Positions 16,384 to 30,914 of a stretch of DNA of 33,060 nt are shown here, piece by piece. Under the pieces are notes generated by a model. It was given only the letters and a program-made list of their open reading frames with translations, made no database searches and had not been told where the DNA came from. The position numbers were made by a program, and so were the translations under genes. The DNA is from Escherichia coli. GTDB lineage: Bacteria > Pseudomonadota > Gammaproteobacteria > Enterobacterales > Enterobacteriaceae. Positions within the stretch are counted from its first letter, which is position 1. Each line of letters begins with the position of its first letter. The stretch is from the NCBI RefSeq assembly GCF_003334315.1, contig NZ_QOWR01000052.1; one strand, given 5' to 3'.

Positions 16384-17811
16384 CTAGCGCGACTGCTGAT
16401 TATATTCATCATCGCGTTGATAAGCTTCATCATTCGGCTGCTCCGGAACCGACCGAAGTCGATACTCTTCATCCTGGCTCACCGCCTGTTCAGCCAAATC
16501 CGGATTAATCTCGCGTTTAATTTCTACTCCTAAACCGCGAAACGCTTCTGCCTGCGCCAGCACATTTCCGCGCCCTGAAGAGAGTTTTTTCATTGCCTGG
16601 CGATAGTTATCCTGCGCTTTGTCGAGACTTTGACCAATCGCTGACATGTCATCGACGAACAAACGCATCTTGTCGTACAGCTTGCTGGCACGATCGGCGA
16701 TTTGCTGGGCGTTGCGGCTTTGATGCTCATAACGCCACAGGTTGGCGATAGTGCGCAGCGCCACCAGCAGCGTAGTCGGGCTAACCAGCATGATGTTGTT
16801 TTTCAACGCTTCGGTGATCAGCTCCGGCTGGCGGTCAAGCGCCAGTAAAAAAGCGGGTTCAACGGGAATAAACATCAGCACGTAATCCAGAGTTCGCAGC
16901 CCCGGCAGCTGTTGATAATCTTTGCGTCCCAGCAAACGGATATGGTTACGCACCGACGCGATATGTTCCTGTAGCGCGCTTTCGCGGGTGTAGTCGTCTT
17001 CGGCGTTAAAATAGCGTTCATAGGCGACCAGCGTCATTTTGGCGTCGATCACCACATCTTTTCCCTGCGGCAGGCGCACGATGACATCCGGCTGCATCCG
17101 CGAGCGGGCGTCATTTTCGATGCTGACCTGGGTTTCATATTCATACCCTTCACGCAGACCGGAAGCCTCCAGCACCCGCGTCAATACTACCTCGCCCCAG
17201 TTGCCCTGGGTTTTATTGTCGCCTTTCAGCGCGCGCGTCAGGTTGATCGCTTCCTGGGCCATTTGCGCGTTGAGTTGCTGGAGATTGCGAATTTCGTGGG
17301 TCAGGGTATGGCGTTCTTGTGCTTCTTTACCGAAGCTGTCCTGAACCTGACGGCGGAAACCGTCCAGTTGTTCACGTAGCGGCGACAACAGGCTGTTCAG
17401 ACTCTGACGGTTTTGCTCATCAACCCGGCGATTGCTGTGCTCAAAAATACGGTTGGCGAGGTTTTCAAACTGCTCACTGAGGCGCTGCTCGCTGTTAATC
17501 ATCTGGCGAATTTTATCGTCAGCATGTTGCTGTGCGGCTTCCATCCGCGTGGTTACTTCACGCAGATCGGCCTCCAGAGAGGTGTTAATACTTTGCAGGC
17601 TGCGCACTTCGTTATTGAGTAACTCGCACTCTGCACGCCAGTGCTCGCTTTGGGTAATTTGTTGTTTTGCCGCGCTTAACTCCGCGACCATCTCTTCACG
17701 TTCAGCTAATTGCTCGGCTTTTTGCTGCGCATGTTGATAACTGGCAAACAGCCAGCCAATTGCCACACCCACCAACGCAATAACTGCGTAAACCATGATT
17801 GAGAAATCCAC
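16384..17811 (-). CDS. rmuC: DNA recombination protein RmuC (coiled-coil N-terminal region, RmuC-family C-terminal domain)
   Basis: 475-aa ORF MDFSIMVYAVIALVGVAIGWLFASYQHAQQKAEQLAEREEMVAEL...; N-terminal TM segment followed by a long heptad-rich region. Confidence 0.88.
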   Translation of the reverse strand: MDFSIMVYAVIALVGVAIGWLFASYQHAQQKAEQLAEREEMVAELSAAKQQITQSEHWRAECELLNNEVRSLQSINTSLEADLREVTTRMEAAQQHADDKIRQMINSEQRLSEQFENLANRIFEHSNRRVDEQNRQSLNSLLSPLREQLDGFRRQVQDSFGKEAQERHTLTHEIRNLQQLNAQMAQEAINLTRALKGDNKTQGNWGEVVLTRVLEASGLREGYEYETQVSIENDARSRMQPDVIVRLPQGKDVVIDAKMTLVAYERYFNAEDDYTRESALQEHIASVRNHIRLLGRKDYQQLPGLRTLDYVLMFIPVEPAFLLALDRQPELITEALKNNIMLVSPTTLLVALRTIANLWRYEHQSRNAQQIADRASKLYDKMRLFVDDMSAIGQSLDKAQDNYRQAMKKLSSGRGNVLAQAEAFRGLGVEIKREINPDLAEQAVSQDEEYRLRSVPEQPNDEAYQRDDEYNQQSR

Positions 17812-17899
17812 AACGCCTCCTGACGCAACAACTTACCCGCACAAAATAGAATTGTGCTGTACAAACGTCCAGTTGGAAAGGCATTTCCTGCGAGGCGCT

Positions 17900-22091: not shown

Positions 22092-22327
22092 TTTTTCTTC
22101 CTCTAATTATATGTAAATCCTATGGATTTTGAATTTAGGGAAGGCGGCAAGTTTATTCATCCCCGGGAGCTTACTGAAGTAAGTGACCGGGGTGGAGAAA
22201 CGCAGCCAACGCACCATAAATTTAAAAGACGAAGGATTTTAGCCGTCCAGATGTTTACACATCCATAATTGGCGGTTACTGTATATTCCTCAAGCGCAAA
22301 TTATTCATGCCGAAGTGAAGGACTTTC
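22092..22327. promoter_or_regulatory. metE-metR divergent control region (promoters plus MetR/MetJ operator sites expected)
   Basis: 236-bp AT-rich intergenic region between divergent metE and metR; contains a TGAA-N5-TTCA motif (22316-22328) and AGACG-like met-box fragments (22226-22250). Individual sites were not resolved. Confidence 0.55.
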
Positions 22328-27450: not shown

Positions 27451-29280
27451 CTACTCTTCGTCATCGCCATCAACATGCGCACGAATCAGCGCCATAAACG
27501 GTTTGCCAAAGCGTTCCAGCTTGCGCATCCCAACGCCGTTAACGCTGAGCATTTCGCTGGCGGTGATCGGCATCTGTTCAGCCATCTCAATCAAGGTTGC
27601 GTCGTTAAACACCACGTACGGCGGGACATTACTTTCATCGGCTATCGATTTACGCAGTTTGCGTAATTTGGCGAACAGTTTGCGATCATAGTTGCCGCCG
27701 AACGATTTCTGCATCGCTTTCGGTTTGAGCGCCACGATACGCGGCACGGCAAGTTGCAAAGAGGATTCGCCGCGCAGCACCGGGCGCGCGGCCTCTGTCA
27801 GTTGTAGGGCAGAATGCTGGGCAATATTTTGCGTCACCAGGCCGAGGTGAATCAGCTGGCGGATCACGCTCACCCAATGTTCATGGCTTTTATCACGGCC
27901 CATGCCATAGACTTTCAGTTTGTCATGACCATAGTCGCGGATACGCTGGTTATTAGCACCACGAATCACTTCCACCACATAACCCATCCCAAACCGCTGA
28001 TTCACACGACCAATGGTGGAAAGGGCAATCTGAGCATCGGTTGAACCGTCGTACTGTTTCGGCGGATCGAGGCAGATATCGCAGTTCCCGCACGGCTCCT
28101 GACGCCCTTCGCCAAAATAGTTCAGCAATACCAGACGACGGCAAGTTTGCGCTTCGGCAAACGCGCCCATCGCATTGAGTTTGTGGCGCTCGATATCCTG
28201 CAACTGCCCCTGCGGCTTCTCTTCCAGACAACGGCGCAGCCACGCCATATCAGCCGGATCGTAAAACAGCATCGCTTCCGCGGGCAGGCCATCACGCCCG
28301 GCGCGTCCGGTTTCCTGATAATAGGATTCGATATTGCGCGGAATATCAAAGTGGACCACGAAGCGAACGTTTGGTTTATTGATGCCCATGCCGAACGCCA
28401 CCGTCGCCACCACAATTTGCAGGTCATCGCGCTGGAATTTTTCCTGCACATCGGCGCGAACATTATTTTCCAGCCCGGCATGATAGGCCGCCGCGCTAAT
28501 TCCCTTGCTTTGCAGGCGCGCAGCGGTGTCTTCTACTTTCGCGCGGCTGTTGCAGTAGATAATGCCTGACTTACCGCGCTGTTCCTGCACGTAGCGCATC
28601 AACTGATCGAGCGGTTTGAACTTCTCCATCAGCATGTAGCGAATATTCGGACGGTCAAAACTGCTGATTTGAATCAGCGGATCGTTCAGCCCCAGCAGGC
28701 GCACGATATCCTGGCGCGTGGTGTCGTCGGCTGTGGCGGTCAGCGCCATAAACGGCAGCGTCGGGAACCGCTGGCGCAACTGACCGAGCGCGGCATATTC
28801 CGGGCGGAAATCGTGGCCCCATTGGGAGATACAGTGCGCTTCATCGACGGCTAATAACACCGGATTCCAGTGCGCCAGATGCTCAAGAAAGTTATCCAGC
28901 ATCAGGCGTTCCGGGGCGATATACAGTAAGCGAATTTGCCCGGTGCGGCAGCCTGTCATCACTTCAAGTTGCTGTTCGCGGGTTTGCGTCGAGTTAAGGC
29001 ACGCCGCCGCCACGCCGTTGGCTTGCAGTTGATCCACCTGATCTTTCATCAACGAAATCAGCGGTGAAACAACCACGGTAAGGCCGTTTAGCAATAAGGC
29101 AGGAATTTGATAGCAAAGGGATTTTCCGCCACCGGTGGGCATGACGACCAGGCAATCGCGACCGGAAAGCACAGTGTCGATAATTTCTTCCTGGCCGGGG
29201 CGAAACTGTTGGTAGCCAAAGGTTTCTTGTAAAACCTGTTTAGCTCCGGACTCCAGATTCAACACTTCCGCCTGCGCCAC
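27451..29280 (-). CDS. recQ: ATP-dependent DNA helicase RecQ
   Basis: ORF with GTG start at 29280 ([34 protein letters not shown]..., 609 aa); the six-frame track uses an in-frame GTG two codons upstream (29286). DEAH helicase core plus zinc-binding and HRDC regions. Confidence 0.92.
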
Positions 29281-29298
29281 ATTCACCCCGATTGCCTG

Positions 29299-29329
29299 AA
29301 ATAAAAACAGGCGCTATTTTCAGCGCCTG
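29299..29329 (-). terminator. Rho-independent terminator of pldA, immediately upstream of the recQ start
   Basis: On the minus strand, stem CAGGCGCT / AGCGCCTG with loop GAAAAT followed by TTTTTATTTC. Confidence 0.65.
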
Positions 29330-29412
29330 CGCGAGAAACTGCAATGCTTTTAGTCTCTGAGAGGGTAATCCTGGATGCTGGGTTCCAGATTTGCCAACCA
29401 CTCAACCGTTCA

Positions 29413-30282
29413 TCAAAACAAATCGTTTAGCATAACCCCCACACCGACACGGGTCTGGTTGAAGTTATAGTCGATGAGCGATTCGCCATAGCCGCTGTAA
29501 ACCTGAGTATAAAGGCGCACATGTTTGGTGATCGGGTAACTTAAGCCTAACTCCGCGCCGCCGTAGCCGGTGTTCCAGTTGTACTGTCCTTTCGCACTGA
29601 GCACCGCATCACCGAGGTGATAGCCGATTTTAAGCTGGTAGTAACCCATATATTTGGTGATATCCGGGTTATCGTCAGTATTACCCACCACATACCACGG
29701 CTTCACTTCTACCAGCCAGTTACCGTTTTCTGCCATCAGGCGAGTATAAAGGCGGTTCCAGCTGCGGGAGGTCGGGTCGGAACGCCCGTTAGAGTCGTGG
29801 TTATACCCCATCTCCACATCGCGCAGCGTCCAACCTGCAAAACGGTAATCGGTGGCAAAACCGAGGAACAATTGCGGTTCGTAGTTGGTTTCACGAAACG
29901 GTGAAGACTCTTCGCTATTGGACAGTTGCCACCAGGATTTTTGCGTATAAGACGCACCCAACACCGAGTTCGGGCCTAAAATCCCACGCCACAGCGGAAA
30001 TGCCAGGCTCAACTGAAACTTTACTTCATCCTTACGCGCATTTTCCGCCCAGTCGTAACTGGCAATCGCTTCTTTATTCAGATCGCTGGTTTGGGTGTAA
30101 ATGAGGTAGTTGGTGTCATAAGGATAGAGCGTGAACGGATTGTCATGCTCCTGCAGCATATTGGCGATAATACTGCCACGCACCGCTGGCGCGTCATGCA
30201 CCTCTTTCACCGTTGCCTCTTGTGCATATACTGCCATAGGCAACATAAACACCGGCAACAACCAGCCCTGCAGAGTCCGCAT
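29413..30282 (-). CDS. pldA: outer membrane phospholipase A (PldA / OMPLA)
   Basis: 289-aa ORF MRTLQGWLLPVFMLPMAVYAQEATVKEVHDAPAVRGSIIANMLQEHDNPFTLYPYDTNYLIYTQTSDLNKEA... with signal peptide and C-terminal aromatic residue. Confidence 0.93.
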   Translation of the reverse strand: MRTLQGWLLPVFMLPMAVYAQEATVKEVHDAPAVRGSIIANMLQEHDNPFTLYPYDTNYLIYTQTSDLNKEAIASYDWAENARKDEVKFQLSLAFPLWRGILGPNSVLGASYTQKSWWQLSNSEESSPFRETNYEPQLFLGFATDYRFAGWTLRDVEMGYNHDSNGRSDPTSRSWNRLYTRLMAENGNWLVEVKPWYVVGNTDDNPDITKYMGYYQLKIGYHLGDAVLSAKGQYNWNTGYGGAELGLSYPITKHVRLYTQVYSGYGESLIDYNFNQTRVGVGVMLNDLF

Positions 30283-30446
30283 CGGTCGTGTTCTCCGTAA
30301 CGAATTATTGATAAGGTGAATATTTTTCTGCGGGCTATTTTACATACTTAACTCCATAGCCGTTAGTTATCCCTTCCTAAAGTAGAAACCAACAACAAAG
30401 AAGCATAAAATCAACATTTCATTAACCAATGAAGTGTAAGGATGAT

Positions 30447-30914
30447 ATGTCTGCCGTACTGACCGCTGAACAAGCCCTGAAATTAGTGGGTGAGATGTTT
30501 GTTTATCACATGCCATTTAACCGCGCATTGGGGATGGAACTGGAGCGTTACGAAAAAGAGTTCGCACAGCTGGCCTTTAAAAATCAGCCAATGATGGTGG
30601 GCAACTGGGCGCAAAGCATTTTGCACGGCGGGGTCATTGCGTCGGCGCTGGATGTCGCCGCCGGTCTGGTGTGCGTGGGAAGTACCTTAACCCGCCACGA
30701 AACCATCAGTGAAGATGAACTACGCCAGCGGCTATCGCGGATGGGGACCATTGATCTTCGCGTTGATTATCTGCGCCCAGGCAGGGGCGAGCGTTTTACT
30801 GCTACTAGTAGCCTGTTGCGTGCAGGCAATAAAGTCGCCGTCGCCCGCGTTGAATTACACAATGAAGAACAGCTTTATATTGCCAGTGCCACCGCCACCT
30901 ATATGGTAGGTTGA
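30447..30914 (+). CDS. yigI: hotdog-fold (PaaI-like) acyl-CoA thioesterase YigI
   Basis: [39 protein letters not shown]... (155 aa from ATG 30447); the six-frame track starts 6 codons upstream. Confidence 0.82.

Follow-up and report, generated by a model that had tools for sequence, protein, structure and literature searches.

A LexA-box-like dyad upstream of Escherichia coli recQ is probably a by-product of a conserved intrinsic terminator that may also host a recQ promoter

Results

Layout of the pldA-recQ junction

The window, which is the whole 33,060-nucleotide stretch of E. coli chromosome analysed here, carries both pldA (30282..29413) and recQ (29280..27451) on its minus strand. The spacer between them measures 132 bp (29281-29412), in line with the roughly 130 bp given by a first-pass annotation of the same DNA. 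A 501-nt query spanning the junction (29100-29600) found matches in every one of 5426 complete E. coli genomes, at 90-100% identity, and MG1655 differs from the window by one base across 181 nt around the spacer; a window position p corresponds to MG1655 coordinate 4005864 + (29280 - p). Read along the coding strand, the TGA stop of pldA is followed by a junction of about 15 nt and a 48-nt stretch (29397..29350), then by CATTGCAG, a 9-nt linker, the hairpin CAGGCGCT-GAAAAT-AGCGCCTG (29329..29308) and the T-run TTTTTATTT (29307..29299), and lastly by CAGGCAATC, a GGGG Shine-Dalgarno sequence, TGAAT and the GTG start codon of recQ. Coordinates of all features are collected in Table 1.

Two in-frame GTG codons are candidates for the recQ start. 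The GTG at 29280 is invariant in 16 aligned taxa (see below) and properly spaced from GGGG or GGAG; the GTG at 29286 overlaps the Shine-Dalgarno sequence, is not conserved in the alignment and was rejected. Two small open reading frames in the spacer (40 and 53 aa) were also set aside, as they are non-conserved, out-of-frame readings of the gene relic described below, as was an antisense ATG opposite CATTGCAG, which is missing in 2 of the 16 taxa.

Table 1. Features of the pldA-recQ junction and of the rmuC control locus in window coordinates
Feature	Position	Strand	Basis
pldA CDS, 289 aa	29413..30282	-	ORF list; RefSeq annotation of the identical region in E. coli E2865; MG1655 b3821
pldA stop codon TGA	29415..29413	-	ORF list and RefSeq annotation
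8-nt stretch CGGTTGAG, just past the pldA stop	29401..29408	-	Alignment with strains S2 and CM182088
WapI-family immunity gene relic: last 15 codons plus TAA (29352..29350)	29350..29397	-	In-frame alignment to the E. albertii gene
Candidate -35, TTGCAG	29339..29344	-	Relaxed sigma-70 scan; TTG invariant in 16 taxa
Terminator hairpin (probable)	29308..29329	-	Terminator scan; folding energy; pairing across 16 taxa
Hairpin 5' arm, CAGGCGCT	29329..29322	-	Terminator scan
Hairpin loop, GAAAAT	29321..29316	-	Invariant in 16/16 taxa
Candidate -10, GAAAAT (the hairpin loop)	29316..29321	-	4/6 matches including A2 and T6; 17 bp after TTGCAG
Hairpin 3' arm, AGCGCCTG	29315..29308	-	Terminator scan
Predicted recQ transcription start	29308..29310	-	6-8 nt past the -10, inside the 3' arm; MG1655 4005834-4005836; from promoter geometry
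Terminator U-tract, TTTTTATTT (RNA UUUUUAUUU)	29307..29299	-	Terminator scan; T-rich run in 15/16 taxa, with small indels
LexA-like dyad, CTGAAATAAAAACAG	29296-29310	.	Last 3 nt of the 3' stem arm, 9-nt U-tract and flanking CAG
Shine-Dalgarno sequence, GGGG	29286..29289	-	GGGG or GGAG in 16/16 aligned taxa
recQ CDS, 609 aa, GTG start at 29280	27451..29280	-	ORF list; RefSeq start
rmuC/yigN LexA box, TGCTGTACAAACGTCCAGTT (reverse complement AACTGGACGTTTGTACAGCA)	17855-17874		44 nt upstream of the rmuC/yigN start
rmuC/yigN CDS	17811..16384	-	Downstream of the LexA box

A probable intrinsic terminator precedes recQ

The hairpin upstream of recQ has a stem of 8 Watson-Crick pairs and up to 2 G-U pairs, the optional closing G-U being 29330/29307. 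Its folding free energy is -16.6 kcal/mol (z = -3.6), with none of 200 shuffled sequences folding equally well, and the tract immediately 3' of the stem is U at 8 of 9 positions. In E. coli the hairpin begins 83 nt past the pldA stop codon; in most genera it begins directly past the stop, and the terminator is kept in 15 of the 16 aligned taxa. A stable GC-rich stem-loop, an adjacent U-tract, a position downstream of a co-directional gene and retention in relatives are thus all found here, as intrinsic termination would require, and the hairpin and T-run very probably form a strong intrinsic (Rho-independent) terminator. The first-pass annotation had placed a pldA terminator hairpin just before recQ, ending roughly 20 bp from its start. 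This figure is fair, the distance to the start codon being 27 nt from the end of the stem and 18 nt from the end of the T-run.

Folding of the spacer as a whole gave a structure no stabler than those of shuffled sequences (z = -0.68), and there is therefore no larger RNA structure. An Rfam scan of positions 28800-30500 at E <= 1 returned a single match, a chance hit to a eukaryotic lncRNA. A terminator following recQ, which would have served as a control for loop conservation, is not present.

The pldA-proximal half of the spacer

E. albertii and 3 of the 5426 E. coli genomes have an intact wapI-type gene between pldA and recQ. The E. albertii spacer is 600 bp long and contains a 160-aa open reading frame (locus L004 of our sample, 949-1431), and the gene in the spacer of E. 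coli N3 (locus L084, 1549-2007) is annotated 'WapI family immunity protein'; its product shares 47% identity with the E. albertii protein (E = 8e-47). Spacers of 63-67 nt occur in several other Enterobacteriaceae of the sample, and the typical 132-bp E. coli spacer is therefore a spacer of this size plus a gene relic. The pldA-proximal half (29412..29350) accordingly comprises the junction and what is left of the 3' end of a WapI-family immunity gene formerly located between pldA and recQ.

This half is also polymorphic in length. Strains S2 and CM182088 are without CGGTTGAG and have a spacer of 124 bp. Of three genomes sampled from the lower-identity classes, two are without the 8-nt stretch; 815 genomes fall into the 90-95% identity class for the junction.

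A sequence-conserved block accompanies recQ

The first 250 residues of RecQ were scanned against species-representative genomes, which yielded 80 loci; among these, pldA is directly upstream of recQ in most Enterobacterales. Sixteen taxa were aligned across the spacer, comprising Escherichia, Citrobacter, Enterobacter, Kluyvera, Superficieibacter, Mangrovibacter, further Enterobacteriaceae, Brenneria and Pectobacterium. The alignment reveals a conserved block of about 70 bp next to recQ, which consists of CATTGCAG, 17 nt, the loop GAAAAT, AGCGCCTG, the T-run, the Shine-Dalgarno sequence and the GTG. Invariant columns make up 36 of the 81 in the block and include GGCGCTGAAAAT, most of the 3' arm, the TTG of CATTGCAG, the Shine-Dalgarno sequence and the start codon. 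The silent-site control was recQ itself over its first 250 codons in these 16 taxa: only 1 of 68 fourfold-degenerate sites is invariant, and the mean pairwise identity of these sites is 0.45. With 36/81 compared with 1/68, the block is under strong purifying selection as sequence.

The way in which the hairpin is conserved is consistent with this conclusion. Across the 16 taxa 96% of cells are paired and there are no compensatory changes, the few departures being unpaired cells. The 3' arm of Brenneria and Pectobacterium still reads CCTG even though its two partner bases have changed.

The block stays with recQ in several gene contexts. In most genera it is immediately preceded by pldA; in E. 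albertii and E. coli N3 it follows the wapI-type gene; and in Superficieibacter electus (locus L008, 1380-1500) the whole block stands before recQ although the upstream genes encode an ABC-transporter ATPase and a thioredoxin-like protein rather than PldA. Sequence-level conservation of the terminator block, and its association with recQ irrespective of the upstream gene, are consistent with a promoter that lies within the terminator. Exceptions were also found. The hexamers considered below are not kept in Photorhabdus, Arsenophonus or Klebsiella sp. BIGb0407, which counts against such a promoter. In the Erwiniaceae loci (Candidatus Pantoea persica and two Rosenbergiella species; L019 1476-1500, L023 1458-1473 and L024 1467-1482) pldA and recQ are 16-25 nt apart with neither hairpin nor T-run, so recQ is probably co-transcribed with pldA there.

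A candidate recQ promoter nested in the terminator

The first-pass annotation had reasoned that the recQ promoter must overlap either the 3' end of pldA or the terminator. This deduction is sound, and the sole promoter-like match that a relaxed sigma-70 scan found in the spacer is TTGCAG-17-GAAAAT, whose -10 element is the hairpin loop and is conserved. The match is 7/12 and falls below the threshold of a stricter scan, which reported no promoter on the minus strand here. The window contains matches of 7/12 quality at a density of about 6.9 per kb per strand, and the case for a promoter consequently rests on conservation.

That conservation takes the form expected of a sigma-70 promoter, with TTG and GAAAAT invariant, a constant spacing and a drifting linker. 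The interval between TTG and GAAAAT contains no indel in any of the 16 taxa and is 17 bp throughout; the 9-nt linker from the -35 to the stem varies in sequence and never in length, in contrast to the T-run and the leader, which do have indels. Budvicia, which has lost the hairpin and T-run, still has TAAAAT at the corresponding place. Since a terminator needs a stem and a U-tract but neither an invariant loop nor an upstream TTG, the pattern is a better fit to a sigma-70 promoter, and we lean, by a small degree, towards a weak recQ promoter of this type nested in the terminator. The conserved stretch around the -35 is CATTGCAGTTT, which at 11 nt is wider than a -35 hexamer needs and hints at an additional or different constraint. 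A by-eye check of the spacer for sigma-54 and sigma-E motifs gave no convincing match, and a search of the accessible literature for the E. coli recQ promoter found no mention of one.

The width of this conserved stretch bears on a second explanation, in which the spacer holds no promoter and recQ is expressed from RNAs that are initiated at the pldA promoter or within pldA and leak through the terminator. The block would then be conserved for a role at the RNA level, as a 3'-UTR-derived sRNA or as a processing or chaperone site made up of the single-stranded CAUUGCAGUUU, the hairpin and the U-tail. A layout like that of 3'-UTR-derived Hfq-dependent sRNAs and the conservation of CATTGCAGTTT beyond the needs of a -35 speak for such a role; the invariant loop and constant-length linker, however, suit a promoter better than an sRNA, the block remains beside recQ when the upstream gene differs, and it matches no Rfam family. 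Read-through itself has a precedent in the operon-like Erwiniaceae, where the genes are 16-25 nt apart and the terminator is absent, but in E. coli the hairpin and 8/9 U tract predict efficient termination. It also gains from the weakness of the promoter match (7/12, missed by the strict scan) and from genomic SELEX data that place a sigma-28 holoenzyme peak at ~29721, inside pldA and upstream of recQ (PMC5493296). Against it, no pldA or recQ 3' end is among the entries listed in the Adams 2021 Term-seq supplements. On balance we consider leaky transcription combined with an RNA-level role unlikely, though not to be neglected. In the same SELEX study the sigma-32 holoenzyme gave a peak in the yigI/pldA spacer (30283-30428).

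The hairpin might also serve as an attenuator in a recQ leader, with the promoter further upstream, in the wapI relic or the 3' end of pldA, and recQ expression low or conditional. A weak candidate promoter, CAGACC-17-TATGCT, is available at 29457..29429, and Photorhabdus has a similar hairpin and T-run about 40 nt before recQ, with a divergent upstream gene and a CATAAT box before the hairpin. In most genera, however, an upstream promoter would have no intergenic room because nothing separates the block from the stop codon of pldA. The relic region is moreover not conserved outside Escherichia, and no alternative antiterminator pairing is evident in the spacer fold. Attenuation therefore appears improbable to us, and a promoter nested in the terminator is the reading that we retain.

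The LexA-like dyad

The first-pass annotation drew attention to a CTG...CAG dyad at 29296-29310 that resembles a LexA box but has a spacer of 9 rather than 10 nt, and suggested that it may or may not be an operator. Its position and N9 spacing are confirmed. On the coding strand the dyad reads CTG-TTTTTATTT-CAG, so that the terminator (stem base and U-tract) accounts for 12 of its 15 bases and the final CAG is the only independent sequence; in Escherichia the arms reach GCCTG/CAGGC (29294-29312). The 33-kb window contains 19 copies of CTG-N9-CAG and 14 of CTG-N10-CAG. Given 19 occurrences of the N9 form, the dyad is no more than expected by chance.

The LexA matrix scan that the annotation had proposed was carried out with a heterology-index (HI) matrix derived from Table 4 of PMC3009722, which lists 18 E. 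coli SOS boxes. The dyad has an HI of 17.5-19 when scored in the canonical 20-mer register, since only one half-site can be aligned. Deleting one central base free of penalty brings it to 15.0, which ranks 11th of 33,042 positions; the ten window sites that outdo it in this free-deletion scan are none of them in promoter positions. By leave-one-out scoring, 17 of the 18 known boxes have HI values of 2.0-12.2, with one outlier at 17.0. The LexA box of rmuC (yigN) served as an independent positive control and, at HI 10.3-11.3, is the best match in the window; Salmonella yigN has a LexA box at the same 44-nt distance from its start (PMC8072944).

The second-best score in the window (HI 10.9-13.2) belongs to TACTGTATATTCCTCAAGCG, at 22277-22296 in the divergent metE-metR spacer. 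Its left half-site is good, its right half is CAAG, it does not contain CTG-N10-CAG, and the match is probably due to chance.

The annotation had also held that a LexA site located elsewhere would count against the dyad. Nowhere else in the yigI-pldA-recQ unit is there such a site, as LexA-like sequences in the rest of the spacer, the pldA coding sequence, the yigI-pldA spacer and the 5' end of recQ all have HI values of at least 19; the dyad fails as well, on its own account. Conservation gives the same answer. The outer CAG is kept in 5 of the 16 taxa and lost in the other 11 while the terminator stays, and among 80 species the best HI of any site upstream of recQ is 13.2 or higher, usually above 15. 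Taken together, N9 spacing, HI score and lack of conservation tell against a LexA operator, and the dyad is almost certainly not one, as far as sequence comparison can establish. The dyad arises incidentally from the stem base and the U-tract together with a single CAG that is not conserved.

Two Morganellaceae carry weak, shared LexA-like motifs at the same offset from recQ. In Arsenophonus (locus L025, ~1414-1433) TGCTGTAATTCTTATCAGAG has true CTG-N10-CAG spacing and an HI of ~17 and lies at -87 from recQ, and the related TGCTGTAATTATTTCGAGAG of Photorhabdus (locus L021, ~1414-1433) has an HI of 15.7. Both sit just upstream of -10-like boxes, CATAAT or CATATA.

Damage response of recQ

In 1986 Irino et al. 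are said to have found recA/lexA-dependent induction of a recQ-lacZ fusion. In Salmonella, recQ rose 2.84-fold with nalidixate, a mid-list value (part 15/35 of the fold-change-ranked differential-expression table), and in V. cholerae it rose 2.4-fold with mitomycin C and was labelled 'known SOS', a label that rests on Irino et al. 1986. The surveys of the SOS response consulted here do not include the gene. It is missing from the table of E. coli SOS genes in a 2019 review (PMC6590174), from the main text of a 2024 RNA-seq re-examination of SOS (PMC11228462) and from the 48 Salmonella SOS genes (PMC8072944), and a tiling-array study names neither recQ nor pldA among UV-induced genes that have LexA motifs (PMC3009722).

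In the Salmonella nalidixate data yigI, which in the window occupies 30429-30914 on the plus strand, rose 36-fold alongside fadA (37-fold) and fadB (74-fold). The dataset reports no LexA box for yigI, and its rise probably reflects the behaviour of the fatty-acid regulon rather than SOS.

A weak SOS response could in principle be conferred by the dyad itself, if it were a functional operator, atypical in its 9-nt spacer, that occupies +1 to +15 of the recQ promoter. Its AT-rich centre is bounded by CTG and CAG, and it would cover the predicted recQ start exactly, which together with the modest inductions in Salmonella and V. cholerae and the fusion result attributed to Irino et al. 1986 would favour such a role. 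We nevertheless find it the least credible of the alternatives: some e14 sites with HI 15-21 were deemed functional by Sass and Lovett (PMC11228462), but the same authors call CTG-N10-CAG the invariant LexA consensus, against which the dyad has N9; only one half-site fits the canonical register (HI 17.5-19), and ten sites do better even with a free deletion (15.0); the outer CAG is gone in 11/16 taxa that keep the terminator; the E. coli SOS lists (PMC6590174, PMC3009722, PMC11228462) and the set of 48 Salmonella SOS genes (PMC8072944) do not include recQ; and the 2.84-fold value is only mid-list (part 15/35).

Discussion

The pldA-recQ spacer falls into two halves. The recQ-proximal half (29352..29281) is conserved in Enterobacteriaceae and Pectobacteriaceae and very probably contains a strong terminator, with a GC-rich stem of 8-10 bp, a GAAAAU loop and a UUUUUAUUU tract, that halts transcription arriving from upstream. 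The same DNA would host a weak sigma-70-type recQ promoter, in which TTGCAG is the -35, the 17-bp spacer contains the 5' arm, and the GAAAAT of the loop is the -10. Transcripts of recQ would begin at about 29310-29308, within the 3' arm, and pass through a leader of ~28 nt with a GGGG Shine-Dalgarno sequence to the GTG; they would escape termination at the hairpin because a start inside the 3' arm leaves out the 5' arm. Combined with the wapI relic in the pldA-proximal half, this explanation as a whole strikes us as reasonably likely. The locus is well known in E. coli, and what it contains is probably an ordinary terminator with an overlapping weak promoter, a result that carries little weight beyond a tidier annotation. 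It does remove a tempting false positive, namely a dyad that looks like a LexA site and precedes a repair gene once called SOS-regulated. More generally, terminator U-tracts with their flanking stem bases can imitate SOS boxes.

The explanation leaves the modest damage induction of recQ in Salmonella and V. cholerae unaccounted for, and the weak damage-inducibility reported for the gene is still without an operator to explain it. One speculative route starts from the sequence at the predicted start (29310-29308), where the first transcribed bases, G/C-U-G-UUUUU... (window 29299-29310), include a T5 run. At pyrBI, codBA and upp, a T-run at the start causes UTP-sensitive reiterative transcription. 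Were recQ to start in the terminator and its T5 run to act likewise, recQ would go up when pyrimidines fall after damage; the idea seems to us improbable. If true, it would explain a modest, lexA-dependent induction of recQ without a LexA box, in parallel with the box-less LexA-dependent induction of pyrimidine genes (PMC11228462).

Comparison with known systems helps to delimit what is unusual about the junction. The gammaproteobacterial LexA operator is TACTG(TA)5CAGTA, with an invariant CTG-N10-CAG. The dyad resembles it in its CTG/CAG ends, its A/T-rich centre and its position directly upstream of a recombination/repair gene. It differs in its N9 spacer, in having GC rather than TA flanks and T rather than A or C as the inner base of the right half, in an HI of 17.5-19 or 15.0 compared with 10.3-11.3 for the rmuC box, and in not being conserved in orthologous regions.

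CpxQ and SdhX are small RNAs that derive from 3' UTRs and depend on Hfq. The block next to recQ is like RNAs of this type in that an mRNA would end in a conserved unpaired stretch and then a conserved terminator hairpin with its U-tail; it differs in belonging to no Rfam family and in remaining beside recQ, the gene downstream, where the gene upstream is a different one.

With Rho-independent terminators the junction shares a GC-rich stem of 8-10 bp, a short loop and the ensuing UUUUUAUUU, all located 3' of a co-directional gene. Unlike in such terminators, the stem and the loop are conserved as sequence, with an invariant loop and no compensatory changes, and conservation of this kind across genera in which silent sites are saturated exceeds what termination needs.

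Overlapping terminator/promoter junctions between adjacent bacterial genes are a general arrangement whose design the pldA-recQ spacer would share: one short segment would end the upstream transcript and start a downstream one that lacks the 5' arm. The promoter half is here a prediction, and what would set this junction apart is that its -10 coincides exactly with the hairpin loop.
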